IMG/VR virus record: IMGVR_UViG_3300020439_002657
Coordinates: 7,573-71,572 of that record
DNA from: a virus
Length of the DNA stretch: 64,000 nt
Direction: 5' to 3' (one strand)
The notes beneath the pieces were generated by a model that worked only from the letters and a program-made list of their open reading frames with translations, made no database searches and had not been told where the DNA came from. Position 1 is the first letter of the stretch; each line of letters opens with the position of its first letter. Positions 1,571 through 64,000 of the stretch are shown here, one piece after another. The position numbers and the translations under genes were made by a program.

Positions 1571-3202
1571 ATGGCAAACGGAAAGCCCGGTCGACCCAGA
1601 GGCCCGAACTACGAAAAGAACCTCCAGAAGAGACTCCGGGCTGCCCGGAATCGACAGTCGCAGGCACAGCGCGCCCGGGAGGATATCCGGGAATTCAAGG
1701 ACTCCAGGATGTACGCGCTGGCGAAGTCCATGTTCCACGGCGTTCAAGCGAGAGAACAGGAAGAGAAAAAGCCGGTCTTTACATCCGAAGAGCAAAGCCT
1801 GATCAACCAGGGAATCCGGCTCCGCAATCCTGACCGCCCCTCTTTCAATGACCTCCGGAAACTATCCTATTCCAATACTCTGGTCGGTGCCATCCACAAA
1901 GTCAGAATCGATGATCTTGGTCAATTTGGTCGGCCGTTCCGAGAGAAGGAGGGGTTCGATTTCGATCTGGAAGATCCGGACAAATCCCCGGGGGATGGGG
2001 ACAAGGAGCTAATCCGGGATGCCAGGAAATTCTTTGAGTTCATGGGCGACAAGGTGGAGGGCTGGCAGAACCGGGATCGTTTCCATGCAGTATTCCAATT
2101 CATGATCCGGGATACTTTAGCCATCGACAGTGTGGCTTTCTATCTGGTCCGGAATCGGAGGGGTCAGGTTGTCGAAGTCAAGTATCTGGATCCCGCAACT
2201 ATCTACCCCACAATTGAGTCCGGATACAAGAATGACCCACGGATCCGCTGGGTGCAGATCGTGAATAGTACAGTGGTCGAAACCTTTACAGATGAAGAGA
2301 TCATTGTGCGCCACCAGAATGAGTTGAGCGATGTTCGGTACCGAAACTCGGGGCTCTCTCCTGCAGAGGTTTCCGTGATGGAAATCATCGCCACAATGAA
2401 TGCCCTGAAGTTTAATCGGGATCGGTTCTCCAATAATCCGCCTCCAGGGTTTCTCTACCTTCCTGGGAATATGCCTCAGGAAGTCTTGGATGATCTCCAG
2501 GTGCAATGGGAGAACATGTTCTCGGGGAACAATAACAATCACCGGATCCCCTTGATTACGTCCGAGGCCCAGGATCTCAAGTTCACCAACCTCAATACAC
2601 TGAGCGACATGGCATTCGAAAAGCTGATGCAATGGGTCACGACCTTTACCCTGGCCGCCCATGGAATGGACCAAGCGGAGCTCGGCCTGCGTTTGATGGG
2701 TAGCCAGGGACTGTCTGAAGGATCTATGGATGGGCGGATAGATGCCGCAATGACCAGGGCAAAGAAGTCGATGCTATCCTATTTTGCAGACGTATGCAAC
2801 GATATAAAGGAGACTGTGGACAGGTACGAACCACTGGTTTTCGTCTTCAATGGAGTTGAGAAGGAGGATGAAGATAAGCGCCTGGAGAGGGACGAGAAGC
2901 TGGTTAAGTCCATTGAGCTCATGGATGAAGTGCGGAGCCGAAGGGATATGCCGACTGTGGGAGAGGCACTCCGGAAAATCTATGACCTTTCCGATGAAGA
3001 CTTCGAGCAGGTGAAGTACGCCGGGGCCTTCGTATTGGATACAAACTGGAGTCAATCTGGAGCTCAGCTTGTGCAGAATCTTGCCGGTGGTGGCGAGGGG
3101 GATATGGGGATGCCTCCAGAAGCCCCGGAGCAACAGGAATTCGATTTCGAAGACTACGATCCTTCCCAGGAAGACAATCCCCCGGAAGGGGACTGGGGCT
3201 GA
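1571..3202 (+). CDS. Portal protein
   Basis: 543 aa; RDTL..DSVAFYLVRNRRGQVVEVKYLDPATI, GLSPAE, PPGFL, DMAFEKLMQW...AAHGMDQAELG pattern of HK97/SPO1-type portals; acidic C-tail. Confidence 0.9.
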   Translation: MANGKPGRPRGPNYEKNLQKRLRAARNRQSQAQRAREDIREFKDSRMYALAKSMFHGVQAREQEEKKPVFTSEEQSLINQGIRLRNPDRPSFNDLRKLSYSNTLVGAIHKVRIDDLGQFGRPFREKEGFDFDLEDPDKSPGDGDKELIRDARKFFEFMGDKVEGWQNRDRFHAVFQFMIRDTLAIDSVAFYLVRNRRGQVVEVKYLDPATIYPTIESGYKNDPRIRWVQIVNSTVVETFTDEEIIVRHQNELSDVRYRNSGLSPAEVSVMEIIATMNALKFNRDRFSNNPPPGFLYLPGNMPQEVLDDLQVQWENMFSGNNNNHRIPLITSEAQDLKFTNLNTLSDMAFEKLMQWVTTFTLAAHGMDQAELGLRLMGSQGLSEGSMDGRIDAAMTRAKKSMLSYFADVCNDIKETVDRYEPLVFVFNGVEKEDEDKRLERDEKLVKSIELMDEVRSRRDMPTVGEALRKIYDLSDEDFEQVKYAGAFVLDTNWSQSGAQLVQNLAGGGEGDMGMPPEAPEQQEFDFEDYDPSQEDNPPEGDWG

Positions 3203-8763: not shown

Positions 8764-8820
8764 TTACCCGGCGCATGACAAAATGGTTGAAATACAAAGG
8801 ATTCCGCAGAGAATCAACTC

Positions 8821-10622: not shown

Positions 10623-10650
10623 TTATTATTCCTCCAGTGGCTACAGGGCC

Positions 10651-12426: not shown

Positions 12427-12647
12427 TACTTACCTCTCCAGAGTTCGGCCCATACGGCTTCGAAGTCCTTGCGGGATCCGCAACGGGCGCGGAATACTTC
12501 CTTTACTTTGGCCGGGATCGGACCTTTTTTCTTTTCAAGGTCCGTCAGGAATTGCTCCATGGGCGGGTATTTGCGCCGCTTCGCTGTTTGCTTCGCAGGT
12601 TCCCTGGGTTTGTCCTGCGCCTGCTCCGCCTTCTGCTCACTGGCCAT
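12426..12647 (-). CDS. Small hypothetical protein before sheath
   Basis: ATG 12647 with AAGGAG SD (MASEQKAEQAQ...); stop/start overlap with sheath. Confidence 0.6.
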   Translation of the reverse strand: MASEQKAEQAQDKPREPAKQTAKRRKYPPMEQFLTDLEKKKGPIPAKVKEVFRARCGSRKDFEAVWAELWRGK

Positions 12648-13413: not shown

Positions 13414-13448
13414 GCTCTGATTGTGGGCCTTTCCTGATTATCGGTCAC
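13414..13448 (-). promoter_or_regulatory. Putative phage late promoter (tail operon)
   Basis: GTGACC gataatcaggaaaggcc CACAAT cagagc GTG. Confidence 0.7.
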
Positions 13449-14588: not shown

Positions 14589-16049
14589 TCAGGCCTCGTT
14601 GAAGGTTTCGATGCGGGATTTGAGGATCTGCACTCCATCTGGTCGAAACCCGAGCGGCCGGGACTTCGCGAAGGCCAGTTCATCGAAAGTGAAATCCTGG
14701 AAAATTCCGTTGGCCATCATGACCTTCAATCCGTCCTCCAGTTTCTGAACCACTTTTCCTATTTGGTTGCGGACTCTGGATTTCGGGTTGGTGATTTGCA
14801 CTATATCGCCAGCTTCGGCGGCATCAATGCTTGCATTAGGTCCTTTTCGTTTTCGCTGCTCCTGGGCGCGCTTTTCAAAATCCTCATGCCGCTGCTGGAC
14901 AACAGCATGATCTTCGGCGGGTTTTGCGGCCATGGGCTTCTTGGATGGTATGCCACCACGCTGGGGGGCCATCGGACGCTTTTCTGAACCTGATCCGGGC
15001 TTTTTGGGGACTTGTCCACTTTGCTCTTTTTTTACCGGGCGAGGGCGAGGGCCAGGGCTTTCGTCCGGACGAACCCAGACCGTCTGCCGGTGGCCTGCCT
15101 GATTGGTGATGACCTTCTTAACCAGACCCTGCCGGTTCCCGGCCTTGAATACCGCGAGCATTCGGCCCAGGTTGGATTTCAGATTCAATCGTTCGGCCAA
15201 CCGCTTGCGAAAACCGAGATTCTTCCGGATTCTCTTCCTCACCTTGCTCATCGGAGTATCTGGATCCCGGTCTATGTTGGTTGGGTAGCGGGTCTTGATG
15301 TTCTCGAAGTCATCGAGACGAGTTTCAAATGCTTCGCGGGTATCTTCTTCACTGTCTTCCAGCAATTTGTCTAAACGTTCATCGATCTGATCATGACGGT
15401 CCCCAACTTTCTCCCAGATCAGGTCGTGCAGGTCCGTTTGCTTGTCGTCGATAGTCTCCTTTTCGATTTCTATCTCATCCTCCGCTGCGGATTCAGCATC
15501 GTCCTCATCCTCGTATTCGGAGCCGACCATCTTCCGATGCTTTTCCATTATTTGATTGTAGCGGTGCCCACCTTCTTCGAGTGAAGCCATGCGCTCATCA
15601 AGCTTCTTCAGTGCGTCAGCATATTTGGCGTTTATTTGGGTTTCGTGATGGTCCTTTAGATACTGGCGGACCTGATCCAAGTAATCCTCGGCACGGCGCC
15701 GGGCACGACTTCCAACTTGTTCGGCCTTTACGCTATGGAATATCAGGCGCTTCTCCGCCTCTTTAAGTTCATGCTTGTAATATTCCGAATCGGGGTGTTC
15801 GCTCAGTTTGCTCTTGATCCCATCGATCCGAGACTTCAGATCTTCCATGGCGAAGCGGTGCTCGCGGGCCTTCTCGTCTGCGGGAGCCATCCGCTTCGTG
15901 AGCTTGTCCAGGTGCTTCCGGACATCTTTTTTGACTTCCTTCCACCCTTGCGGCGTTTTCATATAATCGCCATTCGCCCAATGGTGGATTTCTCCCAGGG
16001 CTGCACCACGCGCTTTTAGTATTTCAATAAGGCTTTCAAGACCAAACAT
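14589..16049 (-). CDS. Putative internal virion protein (two tagged segments: coiled-coil and KOW-like)
   Basis: ILK|A then GEIHHWANGDYMKTPQGW; internal VFK|A then RQGLVKKVITNQAGHRQTVWVRP; AGDIVQITNP...QIGKV KOW-like motif; ends QILKSRI. Confidence 0.75.
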   Translation of the reverse strand: MFGLESLIEILKARGAALGEIHHWANGDYMKTPQGWKEVKKDVRKHLDKLTKRMAPADEKAREHRFAMEDLKSRIDGIKSKLSEHPDSEYYKHELKEAEKRLIFHSVKAEQVGSRARRRAEDYLDQVRQYLKDHHETQINAKYADALKKLDERMASLEEGGHRYNQIMEKHRKMVGSEYEDEDDAESAAEDEIEIEKETIDDKQTDLHDLIWEKVGDRHDQIDERLDKLLEDSEEDTREAFETRLDDFENIKTRYPTNIDRDPDTPMSKVRKRIRKNLGFRKRLAERLNLKSNLGRMLAVFKAGNRQGLVKKVITNQAGHRQTVWVRPDESPGPRPRPVKKEQSGQVPKKPGSGSEKRPMAPQRGGIPSKKPMAAKPAEDHAVVQQRHEDFEKRAQEQRKRKGPNASIDAAEAGDIVQITNPKSRVRNQIGKVVQKLEDGLKVMMANGIFQDFTFDELAFAKSRPLGFRPDGVQILKSRIETFNEA

Positions 16050-16099
16050 ACAGGGTAACCCAATCCATCAATTATGCGGATGAATCCATCGTAGTGGGC

Positions 16100-17518
16100 T
16101 CAGTCATCCACTACCATTTCCACACCTTCGCCTTCGCCCGCCACGTCCTCCATGGCCTCTATCCGTTTCATTTCTTCTTCGGTGAAGCCCCATTCATCGC
16201 GGGCCAGAGCCTGCAGCAGCTCGGCATCGGTACGTTTTTGCTCCTTCTCTTCCATATCTTCTCCTCCCTTCACTATTGCTATGCGTTGTTCACGGGAGAG
16301 CCTGGATTTGATAATCTGAAACAGCCAGGATTTTCCGATCCTGTTTCTGAACTTTGAATAATGCTCGGAGTCATGGATAGTCTCAGATGCATTCGTCTTT
16401 GTATAGACGAGCCGTGAAGGCTCTCCCAGCTTCACATTTGTGTCATAGATGGCTGCAGAATCAACCATCTCTGCGATCTTCTGGAACCCGCTCGGGATAC
16501 CGGCATAAGCACCTTTCAGAACGCCGTCCGGGACGTAGCGGCCGGTTTTTCTCGCTCGCTGTTTGGCGCGATCCAGAGCAACATCCATCGGGGTGTCAGC
16601 CATCATAAGCTTGATTTCGTATCCCTGGTCCCTGAGCTTCTGGATATTCTTTTCGTAGGATGCTGTCTTTGAACCTGTCCCATCGATAACCAGGTTCTTC
16701 CGGGCATTGATGGCTTCTTCTCTGATCTGCTTCACCAGGTAGCTGGACTCTTCGTGCGCCATTTCGGCCGCTTTTTTCAATCGGTTGTTCACCCCAACGC
16801 GATATTCCGGAATCAGGTTCTTTACTGCATCAGCATCGGCGACAACGAAATCTTCCATGCTACCCAGACCAGCGGACTTCACCATCGTCGACTTGCCGGA
16901 TGCCGGGCCACCCATCATCATAATAGCAACCGGTTTCTCCCCGGACGGCACGGTCGGCTTCCCTTCAAGAAAGCGCTGCTTGATTAGGTTGTGCAGGAAC
17001 TCCCGGCTCTCCTTTGGCTCTCCACCTTCATCTGGATGGCCGGTGAAGTGTTCCTCCCAGGTTTCCGAAGGCATCCCTTCTGGAATTCCTTCATTCCACC
17101 GACCAGGTCGAGGGATAGGATCACCAATGTTCGGGTTCGTTACAATATTATAGAATGCCTGGGCCTTGGCCGATTCAACATCAGCGGGAGCCCATATCTG
17201 GTTTACGCCCTGGTCTTTGTACTTGCGTTCTCTGGGTTTCTTGCCGGTGCCCTTCTTTGCCTTTCCGCTTTTGTCGGACCCGTCGTTTCTGGATTGAGAT
17301 TGTTTGCTACGGACAGACTGGTCGGAGCTGGAGGATCCGGCTTCCCTGTCACCGGTACTTTTCTTGGAGTCCGTATCCGACTTTCCCGGGGCTTTTGCTT
17401 TGGATTTCTCCTGCTCCGGGTTTACGTAAACGGTCTGGCGACGGCCTTTCTTATTCGTAATGACTTTGCGGACGAGATGAGCTCGATTGGCCGCCTTAAG
17501 AATATGAATGCCCTTCAT
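16100..17518 (-). CDS. Zeta-toxin-family P-loop kinase with N-terminal basic tag
   Basis: MMMGGPASGKST Walker A, ADADAVK, HEESS, NLVIDGTG, RARKTGRYVP typical of Zeta_toxin family. Confidence 0.85.
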   Translation of the reverse strand: MKGIHILKAANRAHLVRKVITNKKGRRQTVYVNPEQEKSKAKAPGKSDTDSKKSTGDREAGSSSSDQSVRSKQSQSRNDGSDKSGKAKKGTGKKPRERKYKDQGVNQIWAPADVESAKAQAFYNIVTNPNIGDPIPRPGRWNEGIPEGMPSETWEEHFTGHPDEGGEPKESREFLHNLIKQRFLEGKPTVPSGEKPVAIMMMGGPASGKSTMVKSAGLGSMEDFVVADADAVKNLIPEYRVGVNNRLKKAAEMAHEESSYLVKQIREEAINARKNLVIDGTGSKTASYEKNIQKLRDQGYEIKLMMADTPMDVALDRAKQRARKTGRYVPDGVLKGAYAGIPSGFQKIAEMVDSAAIYDTNVKLGEPSRLVYTKTNASETIHDSEHYSKFRNRIGKSWLFQIIKSRLSREQRIAIVKGGEDMEEKEQKRTDAELLQALARDEWGFTEEEMKRIEAMEDVAGEGEGVEMVVDD

Positions 17519-17553
17519 GGACCCGTTATAGCCGGAAAACGGCTATCGGGCAT
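17519..17553 (-). promoter_or_regulatory. Putative phage late promoter
   Basis: ATGCCC gatagccgttttccggc TATAAC gggtcc ATG. Confidence 0.75.
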
Positions 17554-17561
17554 CTGTCGAT

Positions 17562-17783
17562 TCAGTCTCCGGTCTGTAGATCGTCCATCTCAAGGTCGTT
17601 ATCCAGAATCACTGCGTAACGGAGCATTTGTTCCACTGTTACTGGTTTCCCCTCCTGCATGCAAATTGAGGCCAGGGAATCGTAGACCCTGTCCGGACCC
17701 AGACTCGCCAGGTGTGGGAAATCAGCCTGCACTGCTTCAAAGAGCTGCTGCTTGATGTCTGCGTTCATGTGTTCTTCCTTCAC
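17562..17783 (-). CDS. Small acidic hypothetical protein
   Basis: 73 aa ORF overlapping the end of the giant gene; GAAGGAAG upstream of the internal Met (MNADIK). Confidence 0.6.
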   Translation of the reverse strand: MKEEHMNADIKQQLFEAVQADFPHLASLGPDRVYDSLASICMQEGKPVTVEQMLRYAVILDNDLEMDDLQTGD

Positions 17784-20700
17784 GAATCAACCTGTAGATT
17801 CGGCTCTTGTATACCGACTTCCCCAGCGATGAATCAACCAGCTTGGAAACGTGTTCATCTACCATCTGGTCGATGCTCTTGTTGGGACGGCTTTTCTCGT
17901 ACTCTTCTTTTTCTCGTCGGTAGCGCTCAACCAGTTCTGATTCAAGCTCCTCTTTTTTCTTTGATGAATCTGCCTTCATTTGAGCGATTTCTTTTTCAAG
18001 AGCCTCCGCCTGAGAACGGAGCTTTTCCACGGTCAGACCTTTCTGCTCCATCATAGTCTCATGCTCGACCTTGTCGCGTTTCAGACGACTGAGTTTCGAT
18101 TTGATACGGTTCGCATCCTCCGCGTGGAATCGTCCAAGTGTTGAGTTCTTGCCGTACATTTCGGCCCAGCGCTGTGACCGCTTCAGTGACTCTTCGGCAT
18201 CTCGAATGCGTCGGTCCAGATTTTCAGCTCGATTCAGGGTCGATAGGAGAATGTTCCGGTCGGTGGTCTTATCCTTGATGGCGGCCAGGCGCTGCGTCTC
18301 ATCTTCCGATGCAACCAGCCTGGCCTTTTTCTCCGGGTCAGTCACGATCTCGTATTTCAGCTCATCAGGATTGATGTCCGTGGTTTCAATAAACGGGGAT
18401 CCAGTTGCCTTAAAGATATCGTTGATTCGGGAGACTTTTTCGGCATGCTTCTGGTACAGCTTTGTGTCGATGGAGTTCTCCATCACCGGGTAGAACATGT
18501 GGCAACGCTCCTGGGTGTTCCCCTGGCGCCATCCACGCCCTTTTTTCTGCTCATTCGAGGTCGGATTCCATGCCAGGCTGCAGTTATACATGACCCCCGT
18601 ATTTTTCTGAAGGGACACTCCTTCCTGGATCGTATCGGAGCCGATTATGATTTTCGTTTTGCCATTCGGATCATTGAAGTCGAACTTGATTTCTTCGAAT
18701 CGGCTTTGCCCCTTCGCCTTGGCTTCCTTGCTCCTGGCCTTTTTCCCCTTCTCCTTCGGCGTCATGATCTCGATGGCATCCTCCGGGATTCCCTGGGAAA
18801 CCATGTAAGACTTCACTTCGTTGAAATACTCAACGCCTCGGGGTAAAAAGATGATTTGGCCCGGAGCATTCCCCTGGGCTTCTTTCATCCGTTTGTAGTA
18901 CTCGGCAGCGGATTTGGCCACAAACTTCATCTTGGGACTGCGTTCGACGAAATCCTGTCGGTTATCGTTGAATTGATAGTCGTTTACGAGGGCCGGACTG
19001 ATATTCAAGTTTTGCTGCATGGTCATGGACCGAAGTGCAGCGGAGGGATCTCGCTCCTCGGGATCGGGGTGGAAAGCCATATCATAATAGTTCTCCAGGC
19101 TCTGGCGGATCTGATCCATTTCCTTGTTGGAAGGAAGAACGATCTCCTTCTCTACCAGGTCCGGCCGTTTGATATGCGCGTCCTCTCCGGTCTTTCGATC
19201 AAAGAATTCATTGATGAGTGAGGCAAAGGCGTGGGCATTCTTGAAGCGGCGGACCGTCTGCTTCTCTTTGATTTTTCCGTTGGGCTCCAGCACCTTTTCG
19301 GTCTGAGTCTCTACAAAGGCCGCCACGAAGTCCTTTACGTTGTAGATCCCCATCTTCTGGAGGCGTTCTCTGGCCATCGTGGAGAGTAGGGAGTAGACCT
19401 GAAGCGGATTGTTCGTAAACGGAGTGGCTGTGAGCATCATTACGTTGCGGTTGTCGTTGGACTTGAGCACATGCTGGGCCGCCAGCCACATCTTTAACCC
19501 ACGGTCGCTGGTTGCTCCTCCAATGATGCCTGAGAATTCGTTCGCCTGGGTCTTGACCTTCCCAGTTTCCGGATCCTTTTCCTGTTTTACATCGGCAAAG
19601 ATATTGTTAAAGTTATGGGCTTCATCCACTGTCAGAGAGTCAAAGCCCGCTTCATCAAAGAGTATATCATTGTACGTCCCGGTTTTTGCTCTCGAAGCAA
19701 AGGCCTCTGCCTGGTTTTCCTTGGCCGCCTTTGCTCGTTTATTCTTCGGATCGTCTGAATAGGTTGCGTGGGCATCCTGGAGGTCCTTTGTAAGCTCATT
19801 GAAACGCTCTTCGGTGAAGCCCATCCGCTGAAAAGCATCGTAAGACATGACGGTCACGGATCCTTCTTCGATTTCCAGTTGCTTGCCGCCTTGGGTCATT
19901 TGATTCAGCTCGGGAGTTCCGATCGTATTCACCGTGAGATTCGGATAGAGCGATTTAACGGAGGCCTCCCAATTCGGTAATACGGAGGTTGGCACCACGA
20001 ACAGAGGCCTCTTTGACCGCCCCATTTGCATATTGGATACGGTGGCAATAATGCCTGTCATGGTTTTGCCCAACCCTACCTCGTGCGCTGCGCAACCGAT
20101 GCCTTTTGACAGAAAGTTGGCAATGAATCGATGCTGGACATCTCTCAGTTCATAGTCTTTACCCTTGAACTTTTCGTTCAATCCCTCAATCGGAATTGGC
20201 ACCTTCGCCGGATCTACCTGAACATAGGCGTTGAAGCGTTCATTCCAGGCCTGCTGGATCTGGTTCTGCTCGGCCTCACCCAGGGATTCCTTGACAAACC
20301 TGTCTGCCAGCTTCATTGCCAACTCCCGGCGTTCTCGCCGGATTCTCTCATTCAGGCTCTTGTTGTTGCCCCGGACAGGTATGGCATCACAGTAAGCCCG
20401 AACGTCGCTGGCTGAGGCCGCGTAGTCCATAAATGTCTCGTAGTCCAGATCACCGACCCATTCCTTGAACCGGTCGAGAAGGGAACTTCCGTCATCCAGG
20501 GTGACTGTCTTGAAGAAAGGATCGATTGGATCCAGAACTACGTCCTTCAGAGGCGTTTGCTCCGGAATGGCTTCTTCGAGCATCTGGCGCTGCTTCTGGT
20601 ATAGTTGCAGGCCACCTTTCTCGATGATCTCTTCCCTGTCCGATTCCAGTTGCTTCAGCTTTTCATAAATATCGCCCGTGGCATACAGGTAGTCGGGCAT

Positions 20701-23700
20701 TGCACCGCCATTGTGGAATGACATCGACTTCGGATCGAATGGCGTCTGGGGATCAATGTATCCGAGAGCATTGGTGCTTTTCAGCAATTCGACATCCAAC
20801 TCGCTGAAGTTCAGACCGTATTTCTTGTTGAACTCCGCCTGATTCAGGAGCTTCGGGGGAGGACTCTGCTTTTCTCTCGCCGTATTCTTCGTTTTCCTCG
20901 TCGCATTTCGGACGGCTTTCTTCTTAACCGTCTTCCGATTTGAACTGGCTACCTTGTGCTTCCCCTTTGCGTTCTGGTTTCCGATCAATCCCCTGGAGAT
21001 TGCATCCTTGTGGGCTTTTGATATCTCCTTCGGGGCCGCCGGTCTATGATTGAGAAAGGTATCTATATTGCCCTTTGTCCGCAGGTCTGGCTTGCCCCAG
21101 CGATCTGTCGTCTCGTGCTCCTCTCCGTGAAGATGATTCGGGTTCCGCTTGAAGTATTCATCCCCGAAGGCAATCGCATTGTCTTTGTGCTCCGTAGTAT
21201 TCTTTCTAAGGATGATCAGATCCGTGCCGATGTCCGTATGAGCAAAAGTGCCATTCGGCAATCGGTGGGCTTCCAGGAGTTCTGCTTTGTTGAATATCTT
21301 CTCCTTTGCTTTGGTCTTCCCCTTTCGGAGAAAGTTGGAAGGAACGACCATTGCAACTATGCCGCCTTCCTTCACGGTGTCGAGGGAGCGATGGAGGAAG
21401 TATTCCTCATAGCGCTGCCAGCCTCGACCTTCGGATGCCTTGTATTTTCCTCCCATTTCGCCGTAGGGCGGGTTCGTTACCACGGCATCGTACAGAGGGC
21501 CATCGTATTGCTTCTTGGATCGGTTCCGGTTATCCAGGAACAGCTCTTCGAATTGCCCCTTCCGGACGCTTGCATCCGGGTGCAGAATACCGGCAATCTG
21601 ACTTGAAGTGTCGTCTACCTCCAGCATGTCGAAACTGTAGTCCGGTCGTCCCTCTGCGAATCGTCCGGTCCCGGCAGCGGGTTCGAGAATCTTGCTCCCT
21701 TTGGGGATATATCGCTCCAATAGCTCCCAGGACTTGTTTACGACCTTCTCAGGAGTATAAAACTCATAAAGAAGTCCCTTGCCGGAGTAGTCCGTTTTAT
21801 CATTTCGGGTCTGCCCGCCCCAGCCTTCGTACTGACGAAGGAGTTCCTTCTGCTCCTCGGTCATCTTTTCCGGTGGCACAGATTTCAGGATCTGTCGGAC
21901 CTCTTCATTGATTGCATGCTGAGTCTTGACGCCGACCCGTGCTTTACCTGTTTCGACGCTTGCCCTTATGCGGGATTCTCGAATCTGAGACTCCTTTCTT
22001 GTTTCCAGGAGAGAGACCCGAGCTTCGTTGCGTTGATCCAGGTCTTCCTGAACTTCTGGAGGATGCACCCTGGAGTTTGCGTATTCCAGCATGTCGCTGG
22101 AACGATTTCCGTAGGCTTCCCGGGCGGACTCTTCAAGGTCCCGTTCTGCTGCATTATACCTTTCTTCAGCCTTCTCTATTGAACGAGGATCGCTCTGGAT
22201 CGATTCGGACCATTGCTCATGGATGAAGCGAAGCAAATCTTTCCGGAACGGTGCTGGGTTCGGAGTGCTAACGGTTCCTTTCGAGCCCGAGTCCTTTGCA
22301 GAGTTCGCCGGAGTTTCCGATGGCTCCTGGAAGAGGCTCTGTTGCGAAAAAAGGTCTTCGTATTTGTCACGGTGGAGCAAATACTCAACCAGATGATCCA
22401 CAAAAGTTCCGGCATCCAGGTTCGGGAATCGCTCGGACGCCCGCTTCCAGAGGGATCGTGCCTTATCTCCCTTGACTTCCGACTCTATCTCATCCGGTAT
22501 ATTCCTGACATCCGCAGGGCTCAAATCCTGCTCTCGGTTGTCGGCAGGCCCCCTGGCAACTCCCAGCAGCTGCTCCCGGATCTTTTTGTAGTTGGTGACT
22601 AAGTAAGGGTAAGTAGCACCAATGCTACCCTGATCGTTTTCTCCTTCGATGGGTTTCCCCTTCTTGTCGGTTAGAGAATTCAAGGCCATGTACAGGCCGG
22701 ATTCTTTGAACAGATTCCCGAGGACATCGATGAATTTCCCTCTGCGTTTCAGAGTGAACTCCCCGATTTGTTCCGCCTGAGCCTGGTTGGTTTCATCGGG
22801 GTTCACGTAAACTGTCTGTTTGTGACCCTTCTTGTTGGTTATTACCTTGCGCACGAGGTGAGCCCGATTCCTCGCCGATTTGCCTTTGCCTTTGCCTTTG
22901 GCCTTGAGGACTTCCAGAAACCTGGTTTTATCGATTACCCGTGTCTTTCTATGGGCCGACTTTAGAACATGAATGGCGTCCTGGCTGGCTTCAATCACTG
23001 CCATTGAGCGGGCGAATGCGAGACTATGGTTCGATGATTCCTCTTTGATCTTGTTGAAATTCTGCTCCAGAGTACGCTTGACTGTTTCCAGATCATTCAT
23101 CAGTGCCGATAGCTGATCCATTTTTGAGCGAAACCCGGACTCACCTTCCGTGGCCACGAGGCTGTTGGACAGCTCTTTGAGTGTAGATTCGTTTAGGGAG
23201 CCAACAGAGTCTCCGAGAAGGCGCTGAAACGAACTCTGCACGTTATTCAGGAACTTGTCTATTTGCGCTGTGTTTCGTTTTGCCTTTTCTTCCGAACCGA
23301 GACTCTGAACAGCCTGCTTCTCGGCTTCCGTACGGGTTTCATCTACGGACCAAATTTGATCGGAGTTCTGCGACTTGAGCTCCTGCATGTAGCTAATCAC
23401 TTCAGCAGCTCCAAATCCACGATGTCGGTTGGCATTGTAGAATCGGTGGGCCTTGTTCTGGATGGTTGCGTTTTTAGACCCGTCTGGATTCAGGCCATGA
23501 GTTCCGATCGCTTCCGCGATACCTACGGGCAGACTTCGGTCCTTTTTCTCGATCAGCTTTTGAAGGTCACTGTGGAGCCCGGTCAATGCTTTGCGTCGCC
23601 GGACAGTTCCCGGATTCATTCCGGTCTTTTCTGCGATTTCTGAAACACTGTGGCCCATCTCGGTTAGCTCTCCGATGGCCCGGGCCTCATCCAATGGATT

Positions 23701-24525
23701 GACAGTGCGGCGAACATTCTCCGACATTTGCGCCATAAGTCGGTCGCCTTTGCTTCCATACTGCTTTACGATGACGGGAATCTGAAAATTGTCCGGTAGT
23801 TTCCCTTCGCTGATAAGTTCCTTTACCGCTGTGAATCGGTGGTGCCCCGAAACGATATTGTAGGTTCCGTTGTCCGTATCGACCTGAAGAGGGAAGGCCG
23901 GATTGTAACCATTCCGGAGGATGCTGGCCTTGATGCCATCGATTGTCTTTCTGTCGTAGTTGCGCTTGTCTGTGTACTGAGACAGCTCCCGGATCTGGTC
24001 ATGACCAACGAAGGAGAGAGCGGTTGCCGGGGAATCCGATGCTGTCCGGTCTTTTCCCTCAGTGGGCTCCGGCTTCTCTTTGTTGAAGGCTTCTGACTGC
24101 TCGGATTCAACAGGTGCCCCGGATAGAGGATCCTTTCCTGAAGCCCGAGCCTGCTCTTGTGCCGCATGCCACTTCTTCTGGGCCTCCATCCGTTTTCTCT
24201 TTGCAGCCTCTACTGCAGGTGGATGGGGACCCGGAGAATACCGCTTGTCTCCCGCTTGCTTGCCATAGGCCTCTTCCAGCGCTGCACTGAATTCTGCATC
24301 GGCCCTTTGAAACTCCTTTCGAGCCTCCGCGACAGGGGATAGAGCCTGTGATTGTTTTTGTGGGGCAGAAGGTGGACTTCCAGACTTATCTGGTTTAACG
24401 TATACTGTTTGCTTGTGGCCCCGTCGGTTTGTGATGACCTTGCGAATGAGATGCGCTCTGGAACGGGGGCCTGCCATAGCAGCCCCCATCCGTTCTTTCA
24501 ACACTTGCAGGAATTTCCGACGCAT
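17737..24525 (-). CDS. Giant polyvalent protein: ParB-like domain + N6-adenine MTase + SNF2-type helicase (DarB-like)
   Basis: 2262 aa; ParB: IVSGHHRFTA, SENVRR, HTH; MTase: FYTP, ILEPAAGTGRF, VTNPPYG; helicase: AHEVGLGKT, DEAH, TATPFTN. Confidence 0.9.
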   Translation of the reverse strand: MRRKFLQVLKERMGAAMAGPRSRAHLIRKVITNRRGHKQTVYVKPDKSGSPPSAPQKQSQALSPVAEARKEFQRADAEFSAALEEAYGKQAGDKRYSPGPHPPAVEAAKRKRMEAQKKWHAAQEQARASGKDPLSGAPVESEQSEAFNKEKPEPTEGKDRTASDSPATALSFVGHDQIRELSQYTDKRNYDRKTIDGIKASILRNGYNPAFPLQVDTDNGTYNIVSGHHRFTAVKELISEGKLPDNFQIPVIVKQYGSKGDRLMAQMSENVRRTVNPLDEARAIGELTEMGHSVSEIAEKTGMNPGTVRRRKALTGLHSDLQKLIEKKDRSLPVGIAEAIGTHGLNPDGSKNATIQNKAHRFYNANRHRGFGAAEVISYMQELKSQNSDQIWSVDETRTEAEKQAVQSLGSEEKAKRNTAQIDKFLNNVQSSFQRLLGDSVGSLNESTLKELSNSLVATEGESGFRSKMDQLSALMNDLETVKRTLEQNFNKIKEESSNHSLAFARSMAVIEASQDAIHVLKSAHRKTRVIDKTRFLEVLKAKGKGKGKSARNRAHLVRKVITNKKGHKQTVYVNPDETNQAQAEQIGEFTLKRRGKFIDVLGNLFKESGLYMALNSLTDKKGKPIEGENDQGSIGATYPYLVTNYKKIREQLLGVARGPADNREQDLSPADVRNIPDEIESEVKGDKARSLWKRASERFPNLDAGTFVDHLVEYLLHRDKYEDLFSQQSLFQEPSETPANSAKDSGSKGTVSTPNPAPFRKDLLRFIHEQWSESIQSDPRSIEKAEERYNAAERDLEESAREAYGNRSSDMLEYANSRVHPPEVQEDLDQRNEARVSLLETRKESQIRESRIRASVETGKARVGVKTQHAINEEVRQILKSVPPEKMTEEQKELLRQYEGWGGQTRNDKTDYSGKGLLYEFYTPEKVVNKSWELLERYIPKGSKILEPAAGTGRFAEGRPDYSFDMLEVDDTSSQIAGILHPDASVRKGQFEELFLDNRNRSKKQYDGPLYDAVVTNPPYGEMGGKYKASEGRGWQRYEEYFLHRSLDTVKEGGIVAMVVPSNFLRKGKTKAKEKIFNKAELLEAHRLPNGTFAHTDIGTDLIILRKNTTEHKDNAIAFGDEYFKRNPNHLHGEEHETTDRWGKPDLRTKGNIDTFLNHRPAAPKEISKAHKDAISRGLIGNQNAKGKHKVASSNRKTVKKKAVRNATRKTKNTAREKQSPPPKLLNQAEFNKKYGLNFSELDVELLKSTNALGYIDPQTPFDPKSMSFHNGGAMPDYLYATGDIYEKLKQLESDREEIIEKGGLQLYQKQRQMLEEAIPEQTPLKDVVLDPIDPFFKTVTLDDGSSLLDRFKEWVGDLDYETFMDYAASASDVRAYCDAIPVRGNNKSLNERIRRERRELAMKLADRFVKESLGEAEQNQIQQAWNERFNAYVQVDPAKVPIPIEGLNEKFKGKDYELRDVQHRFIANFLSKGIGCAAHEVGLGKTMTGIIATVSNMQMGRSKRPLFVVPTSVLPNWEASVKSLYPNLTVNTIGTPELNQMTQGGKQLEIEEGSVTVMSYDAFQRMGFTEERFNELTKDLQDAHATYSDDPKNKRAKAAKENQAEAFASRAKTGTYNDILFDEAGFDSLTVDEAHNFNNIFADVKQEKDPETGKVKTQANEFSGIIGGATSDRGLKMWLAAQHVLKSNDNRNVMMLTATPFTNNPLQVYSLLSTMARERLQKMGIYNVKDFVAAFVETQTEKVLEPNGKIKEKQTVRRFKNAHAFASLINEFFDRKTGEDAHIKRPDLVEKEIVLPSNKEMDQIRQSLENYYDMAFHPDPEERDPSAALRSMTMQQNLNISPALVNDYQFNDNRQDFVERSPKMKFVAKSAAEYYKRMKEAQGNAPGQIIFLPRGVEYFNEVKSYMVSQGIPEDAIEIMTPKEKGKKARSKEAKAKGQSRFEEIKFDFNDPNGKTKIIIGSDTIQEGVSLQKNTGVMYNCSLAWNPTSNEQKKGRGWRQGNTQERCHMFYPVMENSIDTKLYQKHAEKVSRINDIFKATGSPFIETTDINPDELKYEIVTDPEKKARLVASEDETQRLAAIKDKTTDRNILLSTLNRAENLDRRIRDAEESLKRSQRWAEMYGKNSTLGRFHAEDANRIKSKLSRLKRDKVEHETMMEQKGLTVEKLRSQAEALEKEIAQMKADSSKKKEELESELVERYRREKEEYEKSRPNKSIDQMVDEHVSKLVDSSLGKSVYKSRIYRLIREGRTHERRHQAAAL

Positions 24526-24560
24526 GGCCGGATACTACGTTCAATCGACTTATCGGTCCA
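24526..24560 (-). promoter_or_regulatory. Putative phage late promoter
   Basis: TGGACC gataagtcgattgaacg TAGTAT ccggcc ATG. Confidence 0.75.
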
Positions 24561-25251
24561 CTTCGGCCAGCGCAGTAAGCTCGATTACAGTCTGAATCTC
24601 AAAGACAAGCCGGTCTGCATAGTGTACCGCATCCTTCAGTGAACCTGGATCCGGTTCGCCGTTCTCGTCTTTGTCCACCAGGGGCTCTGGATCGATAACT
24701 CGAGGTTTGTACTCTTTGCGTAGTTCCTTGTTGATTTTTTCGATATCCTTTCTGAGTTGTTTCGGTTGAACCAGAATGGAAAAGAAATCGAAGTGAATAG
24801 GCGGTATCAAGATGATCCAGGCATCCGGGCGAATCGCATGAAGTTCGCGGGCAGATTCCGGAACCGTTTTCATCTTTCGATGGAGAGCATTGTTGCCGCC
24901 AAGATTGCAGACCGTTTCAGCATCGCCAACAAGCCATAGGACGAGTTTCCCGATCCATGTTTCAAAGAAATCGACCCATTGGTCCAACCTCGATCCACCG
25001 ATACCGCCAGAAATGGCAACTACGTCAAAACCGATCATCACTTTCAAGCGGGACATTACCTCACTGTTCGAATCTCCGAACAGGAAGAGGCGTGGACCGC
25101 CTACGAGATAGGACAGCATTAACTGAACGACGAGTCTGGGGGCATAATGAATGATCTTGTCCCCGGCGCCGATCTTTCTGGGAATCAATCCCTTGATGGC
25201 AAACCAGAGACACTGGAAAATGAAATTCAGAGTCTTTTGGAGGGTTTTCAT
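24550..25251 (-). CDS. SGNH/GDSL hydrolase
   Basis: FGDSN, GIGGS, LGGNN, DAVH blocks; start set at ATG 25251 (MKTLQK) by late-promoter spacing; hydrophobic N-terminus. Confidence 0.8.
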   Translation of the reverse strand: MKTLQKTLNFIFQCLWFAIKGLIPRKIGAGDKIIHYAPRLVVQLMLSYLVGGPRLFLFGDSNSEVMSRLKVMIGFDVVAISGGIGGSRLDQWVDFFETWIGKLVLWLVGDAETVCNLGGNNALHRKMKTVPESARELHAIRPDAWIILIPPIHFDFFSILVQPKQLRKDIEKINKELRKEYKPRVIDPEPLVDKDENGEPDPGSLKDAVHYADRLVFEIQTVIELTALAEVDR

Positions 25252-25287
25252 GCACCCGAGTAGGCCATAGAAAAGGCTATCGGGGAA
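25252..25287 (-). promoter_or_regulatory. Putative phage late promoter
   Basis: TTCCCC gatagccttttctatgg CCTACT cgggtgc ATG. Confidence 0.6.
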
Positions 25288-25348
25288 CTGAGACAATCCC
25301 GACAATATTATTGACAAAACATGCCCTGTTTTTGTCCTGTAGGTTGTC

Positions 25349-28775: not shown

Positions 28776-29462
28776 TCAGGCTCCTGCCTTATTGATGTAT
28801 TGCTTTGCTTTGTCGGTGAGCACTCGACCCACTTCGAAGGCAGTCATGTCTTCAGTGGTAAGCTCACCGGCCTGGACTCCTTTCAGAATCAGGGTCTTTG
28901 TTTCGGAGGTGGATCTGCCGCTCTCCTGGCCAGCACCGGGGGCCACTTGCTCAACCGTACTCTTGCGAACTGGCTTGCCGAGGTATTCATCCACCTGGCT
29001 TTTCAAGACAGCATTCTCCTTGCGGGTTGCCTGCAGCTCGTCCAGGATATGAGTAAGGCCATAACCGAGAACACTCAGGGCCTCTTCGATTCGCTCCATG
29101 GACTTCTGAATGGGGATCTGGTCCGAATTGGCTTCATCCTGGGTCGGATCCTTTGACTTGTTGACGTCTCCTTTGTCCCCGGACCCGTCGCCTTCTCCGG
29201 ATTTTGGATCATCCTCGGAGAAATAGGCATCTATGATATCTTTGGCAAAATCTCCGGCCTCAGATTCGTCGACACCGTTAGATACCAGGAAGTCCTTAAC
29301 GGAATCTGCGTCCGGTTCAATTTCGCCGTTTTCCATTTTGTTAGCGGCCTGCATTGCCAGGTCCTCGATGGATCCGCCGCCTTTATCGCCGGAGGTCGGA
29401 TCGTTCGCTTTGCGAACGCTTAAAGATTGAATCTTTCCAATTAATTCTTCTGCCCATTTCAT
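28776..29462 (-). CDS. Putative scaffolding protein
   Basis: Acidic, coiled-coil, between protease and capsid; many KS/KA sites (VRKA, VNKS, IQKS, VLKS, PVRKS). Confidence 0.75.
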   Translation of the reverse strand: MKWAEELIGKIQSLSVRKANDPTSGDKGGGSIEDLAMQAANKMENGEIEPDADSVKDFLVSNGVDESEAGDFAKDIIDAYFSEDDPKSGEGDGSGDKGDVNKSKDPTQDEANSDQIPIQKSMERIEEALSVLGYGLTHILDELQATRKENAVLKSQVDEYLGKPVRKSTVEQVAPGAGQESGRSTSETKTLILKGVQAGELTTEDMTAFEVGRVLTDKAKQYINKAGA

Positions 29463-29498: not shown

Positions 29499-30365
29499 CT
29501 ATGCCGCTCCAAAGTTACCTGTTAGCAGTACGCCGTTGGCGACTTGCTTGGCTAAATCCGTATCAAAGCCAAAGCTATCGGTCAAAAAGCTGACTATGGG
29601 ATCGGGTTGCAGGGGCAGGGTGCCGCATTTGATCGCATCCACCACTTCACGAGCGATAGCTTCCTGCATGGATGGTTGCGAAAGGACCAATCGCGTGAGC
29701 CGACCGACCTGCATCTGTAGATCCTGAATTATCTGGTCACGGATTTCTGTATCGGGCAAGGTGTCGGTTGCGCCCGTCTGCTCTTCGGTGTAGTAGTCCT
29801 CACCGGCCTTGATCAGCTGAATGAGTTTAGACTTGGCCAGTTGAACGCTTGTATCCGGATTGATGACTTCCTGGAGCGGGGCGATTGCGATCTTTTTCAG
29901 GAGCATCTTCTTGAAAGTGTTGCCTTCCAGGTCCCTCGGGCTCGCAAAACCAGAGATCGAAGCACCCCAGCCGGACCAGCCGGATTCAAGACCCTTGCGG
30001 ATTTCCTGGACGTATTCATTGTCTGCGAATAGATACCCCTGTGAATATACGCCATCATCCCCGACGAACAACGACTTGTCGGGATCGGGATATCCAATGA
30101 TGGCTCTTGCTTTGGCCTTCTGCAGCTCCACAAGTTCGGTGCCGGAGACACCTTTCATCTGTTTGTCCAGAATATCTGTTATGTGGTTATAGTCGTAGTA
30201 GCCTTCCCTGGAAAACGACCGTTGCATGTCCGGGTCTGCAAACGCGCTCTTTAGGACACGCTCGCCGTGCCGGTCTTCTCCTTCAGTGGAGGCTCGAATC
30301 AGAACTTTCAGCCGTCCGGAATTCTCTTCGGCTTTGATAATATGGCAGGGATGGGTAAATTCCAT
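29499..30365 (-). CDS. Prohead protease
   Basis: ASTEGEDRHGERV, DYNH, GASISG, IAIAP..VINPDT: HK97-like (U35/S78) protease pattern. Confidence 0.85.
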   Translation of the reverse strand: MEFTHPCHIIKAEENSGRLKVLIRASTEGEDRHGERVLKSAFADPDMQRSFSREGYYDYNHITDILDKQMKGVSGTELVELQKAKARAIIGYPDPDKSLFVGDDGVYSQGYLFADNEYVQEIRKGLESGWSGWGASISGFASPRDLEGNTFKKMLLKKIAIAPLQEVINPDTSVQLAKSKLIQLIKAGEDYYTEEQTGATDTLPDTEIRDQIIQDLQMQVGRLTRLVLSQPSMQEAIAREVVDAIKCGTLPLQPDPIVSFLTDSFGFDTDLAKQVANGVLLTGNFGAA

Positions 30366-61737: not shown

Positions 61738-62619
61738 TTGGCAGAGAAGCGCGAACAGTTCGAGGGTCCGTTCCTGCCTTTCAGGTTTCTCCGGGAATGG
61801 CAATACGCCTGGCTGGAGTACTACGCCTGGATGCAGGCGACCCTTGTGGGCGGGACCGTATCACGGATACAGATCAACAAATCCATGCTCGGCGATGTCT
61901 GGAAGCGGGCCAACGGCTTCCTGGGGCGCCTCATGGAGCGGAATCCATTCCCTGCCCCATCGATCCAGGTTGGCACAGAGCTGGATGAAGACTCCCTCAA
62001 TGAATACGAATCGGAGGCCTTCGACTGGCTCCGGGTGAACTACAACGAAGTATACCGGGGCGAGAACTACAAGGGCACCGTGCTCGGAATGATCGCCCAG
62101 CACTTCCAGCGCAAGGGATTCGACCTGAACCGACTGAAGGAACTGAGCCTCCAGGATCTGGACTCGGAGATGCAATCCGAAGGATACGAAGGTCTGGGGA
62201 ACCTGGACGACTTCCTGGAAAAGACCGGCGTCCGGAAATCCTCAATCTACGCATCCATCTTCAATGAGTCCGAAGGAGCCCGCTGGCTTGCCATCTACGA
62301 CGAAAACGGCCAGAGGGCAGGCCGCAGCTACGAGGTTACCAGGGACATGGTGCGCGACATCGTGCAGATGGCCATAGACAATGATCTGTCCCTGGATGAG
62401 ATCCGTCAGGAACTGATCTACGCCAGCACAGAAGCACAGTCCGGACGGTATATCAATCCTGACGGATCCATCGATGAGAAGGGATTCCAGGAGCTCATGC
62501 TGAAGCACTTGAACCGTGACATGGTCCGCGTTGCTGTTACCGAGGCGGCAATATCATTCAACAACGGCCTACTACTGCAGCAAGTCCATGAGGGCGGGAA
62601 GTATGTTAGATTCACGTGA
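61738..62619 (+). CDS. MuF/SPP1 gp7-like minor head protein, N-terminal part
   Basis: LNRDMVRVAVTEAAISFNNGLL...KYVRF matches the MuF 'R.ARTE...N.G' region, then stops before the Cys motifs. Confidence 0.7.
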   Translation: MAEKREQFEGPFLPFRFLREWQYAWLEYYAWMQATLVGGTVSRIQINKSMLGDVWKRANGFLGRLMERNPFPAPSIQVGTELDEDSLNEYESEAFDWLRVNYNEVYRGENYKGTVLGMIAQHFQRKGFDLNRLKELSLQDLDSEMQSEGYEGLGNLDDFLEKTGVRKSSIYASIFNESEGARWLAIYDENGQRAGRSYEVTRDMVRDIVQMAIDNDLSLDEIRQELIYASTEAQSGRYINPDGSIDEKGFQELMLKHLNRDMVRVAVTEAAISFNNGLLLQQVHEGGKYVRFT

Positions 62620-64000
62620 ATCGACAGCCGCAAATCCGGGAGTATCGCGGGTTATCTTTGATATCACCAAGTCCGAAGAAAGCGGACCCGGATCGCGGGG
62701 CGGAATTGTGGTCGGTTACTGGCCGTCGGGAAAACCGAAGTACCTTTCGGAGCTCAAAGAGTACAACCCCGAATCAGGCGAAATCCAAACCTCAACTGTG
62801 AATATCCCGAAGAACAAAGAACAAAGGCGAGAATTTGCAAAGAGGCAAATGCAGTCTCTTGTCGGCCTTTCAGTACCAAACATCAGCCTCGGCAGGGATG
62901 TTGTCTTTACCCGGTCGAAAGGCAAGAAGGGAGTATCCGGAATCCGAACCTCCCAGGACATCGCTGTCATCCCATTACTTGGCGCCCTGGTGCATACGGC
63001 CAGACTCGTTGGCTCAGAACCAGACAGCAAAGACCGTCGCCAGATTCTCGCCGTCCATAAACTTGCAAGCCCTGTCACGATCGATGGAGAAGAATGGGAG
63101 ACTGTTTTTACAATCAAGGATACGCTGGAAGGCAAAGAGAAGGTCCTGTACTATTATACGCACCAGGTTGGGAAACAGGATAGGCCCGGACTACAGCCCA
63201 GCGAGAAGGGACCGCCCCCTACCATACATCACTCTGGGAGTCCGGGCAAATCCAATTTGGGCGGACAGGGAGAGGATAACTCTGTTCCAACGAAGCGTCA
63301 ACAGAAATCATCACTACCCCGAGTGATCTATGAAGCCAGTCCAGCGTCAGTAGAAAAGGATAAGCCTGGTTCAGAGAGCGCGGATCTACCACCGACCCCC
63401 GGCACTATCCATCGCAATTCCCCAGGCCCCCATTTGGTCGGTATCGAAAATAATACGGCAGGATTCAGGGAAAGCAAACAGAAAACCTCTCTGCCCTACC
63501 AGATCCAGAAAGCAGGCCTCGTTCCAAAGATGTGCGAGTATTGCCGAGAGTGGGAAGCCTCCCAGCCGATCCTGCGGGTCTTTGCCAGCTACGCGGAGTT
63601 TGCACGGTCGGAATTCTACGCTGGCGGCGACCTGATGCAGAATGACCCATACGCAGAGTATGCGGTCTGGCCGGGCAAGACGAACGCCAACCGGCACTAT
63701 TCAGATTGGTGGATCTGCACGCCGGTCCACCCGAACTGCAATCACAGCTACCAATCCTGGGAGCCTCCGGATGAAGACGATTACGACTTCAGCGAGCACT
63801 TTGCGGACCTGGACAGGCGCATGGCCGAACGCCAGCAGAAGGCCGAAGAAGAATACTACGGGAAATCTCGGATCGCTCCTATGGAGGTGCGCGGTGTCTG
63901 GCATGAGCGGACCTGCGCTTGCGAGGATCCGGCCCATGATGACCGAGGATCCTGGGTGCGGGAGTATATTGCCCGAAGATTTCCGGTCGTTGTAGGGTAA
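62603..64000 (+). CDS. LPD3/BECR-like nuclease domain + MuF C-terminal Cys domain
   Basis: LVGLSVPNISLGRDVVFT...VIPLLGALV..A.LVGSEPD.K.R...VHKLASPVTIDGEEWETVFTIK...YYY (LPD3-like); later MCEYC...PVHPNCNH (MuF). Start at ATG 62603 or 62588 uncertain. Confidence 0.7.
   Translation: MLDSRESTAANPGVSRVIFDITKSEESGPGSRGGIVVGYWPSGKPKYLSELKEYNPESGEIQTSTVNIPKNKEQRREFAKRQMQSLVGLSVPNISLGRDVVFTRSKGKKGVSGIRTSQDIAVIPLLGALVHTARLVGSEPDSKDRRQILAVHKLASPVTIDGEEWETVFTIKDTLEGKEKVLYYYTHQVGKQDRPGLQPSEKGPPPTIHHSGSPGKSNLGGQGEDNSVPTKRQQKSSLPRVIYEASPASVEKDKPGSESADLPPTPGTIHRNSPGPHLVGIENNTAGFRESKQKTSLPYQIQKAGLVPKMCEYCREWEASQPILRVFASYAEFARSEFYAGGDLMQNDPYAEYAVWPGKTNANRHYSDWWICTPVHPNCNHSYQSWEPPDEDDYDFSEHFADLDRRMAERQQKAEEEYYGKSRIAPMEVRGVWHERTCACEDPAHDDRGSWVREYIARRFPVVVG
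63172..63266 (-). ncRNA. Candidate antisense small RNA copy 1 (ends approximate)
   Basis: Minus-strand TTGACG(63301-63296)-17-TATCCT(63278-63273); stem GCCCGGACT/AGTCCGGGC spanning 63184-63247; CCGCCC/GGGCGG pairing; pyrimidine-rich tail. Confidence 0.55.
63352..63443 (-). ncRNA. Candidate antisense small RNA copy 2 (ends approximate)
   Basis: Minus-strand TTGCTT(63477-63472)-16-TATTAT(63455-63450); stem GCCTGG/CCAGGC spanning 63364-63427; ACCGACC/GGTCGGT pairing; U-rich tail. Confidence 0.5.

Follow-up and report, generated by a model that had tools for sequence, protein, structure and literature searches.

How phages choose the enzymes that they carry in the head is understood for only a few models (T4, P1 and the phiKZ-like phages). 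In T4, unrelated head-internal proteins carry a short N-terminal signal, the capsid targeting sequence, which lies at a prohead-protease site and is removed by a cut after Glu (L/I-x-E), and the mature proteins are basic. Encapsulins use cargo-loading peptides, which are short, portable and mostly C-terminal, and which put unrelated enzymes into a shell of the HK97 fold. In the phiKZ-like phages and SPN3US, the prohead protease cleaves many head-internal proteins at a motif that is specific to the lineage. In this study we analyzed a window of 64 kb (the whole stretch of DNA considered here) from the IMG/VR virus record IMGVR_UViG_3300020439_002657, a single-contig virus genome of 71,572 bases, in which a basic tag of 23 amino acids (aa) occurs four times on three proteins encoded among the head genes. 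The reading that we favor, by a little over even chances, is that the tag is a basic hairpin retained as an in-head handle on polyvalent effector modules, which would be released by a protease and delivered with the DNA; the packaging, the cleavage and the ligand of the hairpin are all three things that we infer.

The best described relatives of these proteins are the polyvalent proteins (Iyer, Burroughs, Anand, de Souza and Aravind 2017; PMC5512222), large multi-effector polypeptides of phages and conjugative elements whose effectors include ParB, methylase-helicase, Zeta, InPase, ART, PBECR, RelA/SpoT and LPD domains. Their genes lie beside head genes or form MuF and portal fusions, and the products were predicted to be packaged, processed and injected (PMC5512222). 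In the Dar system of phage P1 (DarB, DdrB and DarA/Hdf), a methylase-helicase of ~2,200 aa and a ParB-like protein are placed in the head and some members are processed (PMC5512222), and DarA/Hdf is described as attached to the inner capsid surface and to DNA (PMC12810830).

Three tagged proteins are encoded between the capsid and tail sheath genes

The phage is a myophage, with terminase, portal, major capsid protein, tail sheath and baseplate genes in the window. The three tagged genes are adjacent, all on the minus strand, and are flanked by the capsid and sheath genes. The largest (17737..24525) encodes a giant polyvalent protein of 2262 aa in which the order is tag 1, a ParB-like region (residues 172-332), tag 2, an N6-methylase and an SNF2-type, DarB-like helicase. 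Its Pfam matches were N6_Mtase, Eco57I, SNF2-rel_dom, ResIII and Helicase_C, and its PHROG matches were phrog_1685 (3e-222), phrog_11801 (4e-138) and phrog_10089, the 'DarB-like antirestriction' family (6.7e-65). With three effector domains (ParB-like, N6-methylase and SNF2 helicase) on one polypeptide, where polyvalent proteins have at least two, and with a virion gene context, the giant belongs among the polyvalent proteins, and its N6-adenine methylase and superfamily-2 helicase lie together in ~2,200 aa as in DarB. The arrangement differs from that of P1 in that the ParB-like and DarB-like parts are in one polypeptide, split by a putative cleavage site and a tag. No DarA/Hdf homologue was seen in the window phage, although none was looked for, and we know of no tag that is shared among the P1 proteins.

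The second gene (16100..17518) encodes a protein of 472 aa consisting of a leader, the tag, a low-complexity linker, a Zeta-toxin-type kinase domain and an acidic tail. The P-loop kinase domain that typifies the Zeta toxin/UNAG kinases was identified at residues 182-359 (Pfam Zeta_toxin, PF06414, 3.4e-32), complete with the Walker A sequence GPASGKST, and the best PHROG match of the protein was phrog_16619, 'minor head protein' (2.5e-30). The third (14589..16049) encodes a protein of 486 aa with a leader, a tryptophan-containing hairpin (W-hairpin), an acidic coiled region, the tag, a Pro/Lys-rich linker and a C-terminal domain. No Pfam family was matched by this protein, and residues 366-464 gave a weak match to phrog_4162, a family of unknown function (1e-4).

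Given that these genes lie between the capsid and sheath genes, that their matches include DarB-like, ParB and Zeta 'minor head protein' families, and that related proteins elsewhere are fused to portals or encoded beside them (see below), the three tagged proteins are very probably head-packaged effectors. The cargo domains, DarB-like and ParB included, are by their family assignments typical early effectors.

The four copies of the tag are conserved as peptide

Regular-expression scans in six frames, run on the window and on all 71,572 bases of the genome, found the cores [KR]K[VI]ITN and QTV[YW]V exactly four times, in the same four copies in three proteins that an initial annotation of this DNA had reported. 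All are on the minus strand: copy 1 at 24391..24459 (giant, aa 23-45), copy 2 at 22798..22866 (giant, aa 554-576), copy 3 at 17417..17485 (Zeta protein, aa 12-34) and copy 4 at 15066..15134 (486-aa protein, aa 306-328). Thirteen of the 23 residues are invariant among the four copies, whereas only 28 of the 69 DNA columns are, and the same codon is used at 37% of the identical residues. The DNA divergence and the codon differences between the copies indicate that conservation acts on the peptide, and the 28/69 invariant columns and 37% shared codons rule out a recent DNA duplication as the origin of the tag. The notion of a repeat that arose by chance or from low complexity, or of a functionless recent duplication, could draw on the basic character of the sequence and on the low-complexity linkers that flank it. 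We regard it as refuted, with a probability close to nil, by the 13 invariant residues, the synonymous divergence between copies, and the size of a family in which hundreds of distant relatives have the same logo.

The tag is a widespread domain family

The extent of this family was apparent from profile searches, a check that the initial annotation had proposed for phage proteins together with a listing of the cargo domains. The profile built from the four window copies had matches at E<=1e-3 to 201 protein-cluster representatives (clusters at 50% identity), 15 of them at <=1e-10. Of 151 proteins examined with a local profile, 149 had tags, 167 in all, and the two misses resemble repetitive false hits. 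A scan of IMG/VR yielded 13 tagged loci (numbered with the prefix L), often with consecutive tagged genes (six in L008 and five in L006). The logo from 124 instances reads [KA]-[DN]-R-S-[HGK]-L-V-K-K-V-I-T-N-K-x-G-[HKR]-[KR]-Q-T-V-[WY]-V-[RK]-P, and the 23 residues are, as far as these alignments go, the core of a conserved mini-domain of ~30 aa. An AlphaFold2 model from a 29-sequence alignment folds the tag as a two-stranded hairpin (strands 22-27 and 33-38; pLDDT of the block 92-94), so that the tag is predicted to be a strongly basic two-stranded beta-hairpin. Its net charge is ~+6 to +8, the aromatic residues are conserved, and hydrophobic residues are conserved on both faces.

The tag appears to be an undescribed and widespread domain family to which no curated Pfam, PHROG or PDB entry extends. 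No Pfam or PHROG family covered the tag positions in any scan of the tagged proteins, and a separate scan of 29 tags on their own (E<=1) yielded nothing consistent, only six unrelated families, each with a single member. The tag profile gave only chance matches to PDB chains, a word-index search restricted to the tag region returned only the window's own clusters, an Atlas search with the tag returned hairpin look-alikes below threshold only, and no occurrence of the motif strings was found in the papers searched. Precomputed Pfam lists for P0001 and P0002 named kinase families only. The list for P0003, the cluster of the giant, also names PF28555.1, which is absent from the Pfam version scanned; the tagged Zeta protein does not have PF28555.1, so this family does not represent the tag. 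Two tblastn queries against 50,697 phage records identified Bordetella phage vB_BbrM_PHB04 (PHB04) as the sole tag carrier; it was first seen at E=6 with a window tag, the local profile then confirmed a true tag, and the PHB04 tag as query matched PHB04 only. The tag of PHB04 is in gp034, which is encoded directly after the portal gene and in which ...LLFFK|A... is followed by the tag and a RelA/SpoT domain.

Tags precede effector modules

Among the 167 tags, 65 are N-terminal, 36 lie within residues 26-100 and 66 are further in. In proteins with several tags, each tag stands ahead of an effector module, as in a protein of L002 with the order tag-RadC, tag-ART, tag-InPase-PBECR3. Domains were scanned in 57 of the 89 tagged proteins of at least 330 aa, taken in order of E-value. 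Portal domains were present in 12 of these 57 (9 lambda-type and 3 Mu-type), and in all nine portal fusions that were inspected singly the order was portal-tag-cargo. The other cargo domains were InPase, LPD1, RadC, ART-PolyVal, DUF6908, topoisomerase IB, SAP, lysozyme, Zeta, PBECR1/3, SAM lyase, a 2'-5' RNA ligase type, RelA/SpoT and DUF5661.

The genomic positions of the tagged genes agree with the fusions. They follow terminase and portal genes in L004, L005, L010 and L013, and also in PHB04, and in L001, L008, L009 and L011 they have capsid and sheath genes as neighbors. In five whole records the tags are limited to 1-4 open reading frames (ORFs), and those that could be placed are in or next to the head module. 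The record of L009 (G009) contains two more tag matches, at 20989-21087 and 56790-56870, in ORFs of 1308 aa and 454 aa.

Lys|Ala/Ser sites are enriched in the cargo proteins and recur in the capsid protein

The initial annotation had also noted a hydrophobic-Lys site ahead of each tag (HILK|A, EVLK|A, AVFK|A and QVLK-E), and all four are present. Before tag 1 the leader ends in VLK-E (24493..24504), and the putative protease sites before tags 2, 3 and 4 are VLK|A (22900..22911, at the border of the ParB-like and DarB-like parts), ILK|A (17492..17503) and VFK|A (15141..15152), all on the minus strand; a further putative ILK|A site is at the N-terminus of the 486-aa protein, ahead of its W-hairpin (16011..16022, minus strand). 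The three cargo proteins have 13 occurrences of the pattern [ILVFMY][ILVFMY]K[AS] in 3220 residues, as against 16 in the 19,092 residues that the remaining ORFs encode (Poisson 5e-6), and shuffled cargo proteins have 2.9 +/- 1.7 such sites, with 0/2000 shuffles reaching 13. In the giant, six of the seven sites are at borders of Pfam or PHROG matches.

Capsid proteins of A511 and phage K are reportedly cleaved at K|S, and we used capsid alignments instead of relying on that. The major capsid protein of the window phage (27322..28743, minus strand; phrog_752, 3e-97) has an N-terminal ...LEIKK|AFEAN site that is kept across its family, and Lys followed by Ala or Ser was found at the equivalent position in 11 of 11 capsid sequences (the window, L008, L009, L011, LE1, two Herelleviridae, the L002, L010 and L013 records, and PHB04). 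A putative prohead protease of 288 aa (29499..30365, minus strand) matches phrog_3698 and, weakly, phrog_1028, 'head maturation protease' (6e-6), and its Atlas look-alikes are S78/S77 at 0.93. In an alignment of four sequences its K11 and K178 are invariant and each is followed by A or S, and H61 and S136 are also invariant. Between the protease and capsid genes is a gene for an acidic scaffold-like protein (28776..29462, minus strand; phrog_3660) with VLK|S and ILK|G sites, and the scaffold-like protein of L008 has the same DDLLK|A that precedes the tags of that phage. Enrichment of the site in the cargo, together with its conservation at the N-terminus of the capsid protein and in the putative protease, makes processing of the cargo by the prohead protease at Lys|Ala/Ser plausible.

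In the wider family, 22 of 101 internal tags and 23 of 61 N-terminal tags have a site of the form hhK[ASG] (h, hydrophobic) within the preceding 16 residues, compared to 2.4% of background windows. The motifs ahead of the remaining tags are different, one example being ..YxLL-SEADRSHL.. in portal fusions. With the site upstream of only 45 of 162 tags and other motifs elsewhere, the site looks lineage-specific and the hairpin general.

In the lineage of the window phage, the amphipathic leader ahead of each hairpin ends in hydrophobic-hydrophobic-Lys|Ala/Ser, which we read as the probable prohead-protease site, of the kind found at the capsid-protein N-terminus. The leaders do not end in the L/I-x-E of T4, and whereas the T4 signal is cut off, the hairpin comes after the putative Lys cut and would remain on the mature module, which makes the Lys-ended leader, rather than the hairpin, the closer analogue of the T4 signal. 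The protease motif also differs from that of the phiKZ-like phages and SPN3US, for which the accessible accounts describe no conserved retained hairpin. The mode of processing that we propose likewise differs from that put forward for polyvalent proteins, which involves mainly an in-built metallopeptidase, with anchoring by MuF or portal domains (PMC5512222).

The proximity of tag and site invites the interpretation that the hairpin is itself a processing or translocation element, being either an exosite that recruits the protease or the leading end that threads the portal and tail. The tag is always N-terminal of a module and adjoins a putative site, and in the fusions it lies between portal and cargo, where a release cassette would be needed. 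We nevertheless consider this improbable, in that many tags are at the extreme N-terminus, where there is nothing to remove, and the sites in the capsid and scaffold proteins work without a tag.

Other hairpins occur at the position of the tag

Two further hairpin motifs were listed in the initial annotation, at 15942-15995 and 62690-62743, and both were found there. The first (minus strand, in the 486-aa protein) is the W-hairpin, a second tag class with the pattern GE..W..G...K...GW, which follows an hhK[ASG] site in the 486-aa protein, twice in gp25 of Leptospira phage LE1, and in P0014 and P0084. The second is a Gly/Tyr hairpin in an LPD3-domain protein (62516..64000, plus strand; Pfam LPD3, 2.2e-13; phrog_4610 and phrog_24695), which has a MuF-C-like Cys/His end and no class-1 tag (the 23-aa type) and which reaches the last base of the contig. 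In LE1 (L023), gp25 (7852-10509), annotated as 'tail protein', is a polyvalent protein with HAD and InPase domains and two W-hairpins, and gp26 (10582-13161; 'MAEBL' / ParB N-terminal) is homologous to the ParB-like part of the giant and has a Tyr-rich hairpin after its leader. In PHB04, gp027 (L026 10493-12078), a DarB-like methylase of ~2,100 aa, has a leader that ends in ..LLTK|A, followed by a His-rich hairpin, which brings the hairpin classes at this position to four. The presence of several hairpin classes at one position argues against a single specific receptor site.

Possible roles as a loading address or as a tether to the packaged DNA

Combining these observations, we propose that the hairpin marks the N-terminal side of each effector module in phage polyvalent proteins that are incorporated into the head and enter the host together with the DNA. 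The protease cut would free the modules, for example a ParB-like piece and a DarB-like piece, with a hairpin at each new N-terminus, and the retained hairpin would hold the module in the head until ejection by binding the shell, the portal and/or the packaged DNA. The persistence of the tag behind portal domains suggests that its role is probably more than entry into the procapsid. Two more specific proposals can be made about the ligand, and we consider them about equally likely.

In the first, the hairpin is a true loading address that docks on the inner face of the capsid, the scaffold or the portal, and that would load any fusion in the manner of an encapsulin peptide. Encapsulin peptides, unlike this tag, are not basic hairpins, and their binding site has been demonstrated. 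Speaking for such an address are standalone proteins in which the tag stands at the very start, with no leader ahead of it (MKDKSKL... starts in L006, for example), and the conserved hydrophobic residues on both faces of the hairpin. A further point in its favor is that the capsid-protein family of the window phage is present in 9 of the 13 tagged records; of the four records without it, three are fragments that are at most 25% complete, but one is 75% complete and is a point against an address. Because the patterns used to retrieve the tagged loci were narrow and came from this phage, the tie to one capsid-protein family is in part an ascertainment effect. Tags within a genome also have lineage-specific residues and are more similar to each other than to those of other genomes (0.66 vs 0.56; 0/5000 permutations reach it), and this likeness, with the predominance of one capsid-protein family, hints at a phage-encoded partner and against a purely generic ligand. 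The retention of the tag in fusions with two further portal families and the interchangeable hairpin classes do not sit well with an address. On balance the loading address is possible, though we would hold it only as a minority view.

In the second proposal, to which we give the same tentative standing, the hairpin is a nucleic-acid handle that ties the released module to the packaged genome, is retained, exits with the DNA and acts in cis, the loading itself being done by the leader or by the fusion. The charge of the hairpin and its conserved aromatic residues would suit DNA, as would the other basic and aromatic hairpins found in the same place. That the core is so well conserved among phages of three different portal families agrees with a universal ligand, and the hairpin persists right behind the portal crown in the fusions. 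That loading would fall to the leader is consistent with leaders being alike, as in KFLQVLK and RFLEVLK. The interchangeable hairpin classes and the conservation of the core over three portal families make a generic ligand such as DNA a serious candidate. A handle of this kind would be of equal benefit to conjugative polyvalent proteins, and yet a tblastn search of plasmid records with one window tag gave no match, and no conjugation domains were found among the 57 long tagged proteins scanned. Furthermore, cargo of the lysozyme type has no need of DNA, two members have a SAP DNA-binding motif of their own after the tag, and the within-genome signatures are not expected of a tether. The two proposals need not exclude each other, in that P1 DarA/Hdf, which lends support to both, is described as binding capsid and DNA alike (PMC12810830).

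A broader version, in which the hairpin, alone or with the Lys-ended leader, is a universal portable handle that loads, keeps and delivers any fused protein throughout a large clade of myophages with capsid proteins of the LE1/PHB04/SPO1 type, the W-, Y- and His-hairpins being sister handles, seems doubtful to us and somewhat less probable than either.

A number of observations weigh against the retained handle that we favor. The hairpin comes after the putative cut and is kept in portal fusions, which need no address, and cleavage at every site of the giant would leave its methylase and helicase pieces without a tag. In total, 117 of the 162 family tags have no upstream hhK[ASG] site. The putative protease matched no Pfam family and had chance matches only in the PDB, so its assignment is weak. 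LE1-type relatives have a homologous ParB-like cargo and yet no class-1 tag, and W-, Y- and His-type hairpins take the position of the tag in the window phage, LE1 and PHB04. The likeness of tags within genomes could stem from old duplications. PHB04 is the sole cultured carrier, all others being uncultivated, and a literature search located no virion proteomics for any tag carrier (a proteomics paper on LE3/LE4 concerns unrelated phages, and a paper on Mecenats66 has no proteomics). Finally, the accessible text of the polyvalent-protein paper makes no mention of a hairpin tag or of Lys|Ala/Ser sites, and its supplement, in which LPD1-40 are defined, might list the domain (PMC5512222).

The initial annotation had interpreted the tag and the sites as a code for the packaging and release of effectors. 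The part of this that concerns head cargo is upheld by the gene context, and the release part, processing, is plausible. The part in which the hairpin serves as the loading address is weakened by the location of the tag after the cut and in portal fusions, by the three other hairpin classes, by the site being present at 45 of 162 tags, and by the tagless cargo of LE1 relatives.

If the tag does flag head cargo in hundreds of uncultivated phages, injected anti-defense and host-takeover proteins could be listed from sequence, and a simple profile search would give the injected effector repertoire of such phages. It would also explain how giant polyvalent proteins are divided into working units and would provide a defined peptide for loading foreign proteins into capsids. 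Even as a DNA tether, the tag would represent a domain family not yet described, whose placement follows clear rules. Among its carriers, PHB04, with gp034, is a cultured phage that is available for study.

Additional features of the genome

A second motif shared by the three cargo proteins, [ILV][ILVY]KSR[ILV], was identified three times in the six frames of the genome, solely near the C-ends of these proteins: ILKSRI in the 486-aa protein (14610..14627), IIKSRL in the Zeta protein (16298..16315) and VYKSRI in the giant (17797..17814), all on the minus strand. Base-shuffled genomes had a mean of 0.25 occurrences (2/200 reached three) and residue-shuffled cargo proteins a mean of 0.006 (0/5000 reached three), so the motif that had been pointed out at these C-ends is far above chance. 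As a feature of the whole family it was rejected, being restricted to this phage and its close relative L001.

The DNA motif GMCCGATAR was present eight times in the window versus 2.05 expected (0/100 shuffles reached eight). In four of these cases its 3' end is exactly 24 nucleotides (nt) before a start codon, those of the giant, the Zeta protein, the putative protease and the gene at 12637-13413. The copy before the giant, GACCGATAA, is at 24550..24558, and the equivalent copies are at 17543-17551, 30390-30398 and 13438-13446, all on the minus strand. This motif is probably the 'late promoter' that had been attributed to the giant and Zeta genes. Its presence 24 nt before both starts partly bears out the observation, and the promoter or late role is only a candidate one, a different kind of late-gene leader element being the alternative.

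The remaining landmarks of the window are the portal protein (1571..3202, plus strand; Pfam Phage_portal, 1.9e-11), the tail sheath (10651-12426) and the large terminase subunit (58211-59917). A megablast search of the region against phage sequences gave no match. The capsid protein is 40.8% identical to those of the Leptospira LE1-like phages, SPO1-type capsid proteins being more distant, and a profile scan of genome contigs found that near-identical cargo genes came from contigs of spirochaete metagenome-assembled genomes at 9 of 9 loci. Directly upstream of the giant is an ORF of 304 aa (24550-25464, minus strand) with no Pfam or PHROG match, a hydrophobic N-terminus and a GDS-type motif, which is conserved in L001 and L009. 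On the opposite strand within the late head-gene block is a Fic/DOC-domain gene (25349-26530, plus strand; PF02661, 5.8e-14), which is placed between the gene following the capsid protein and the gene preceding the giant.

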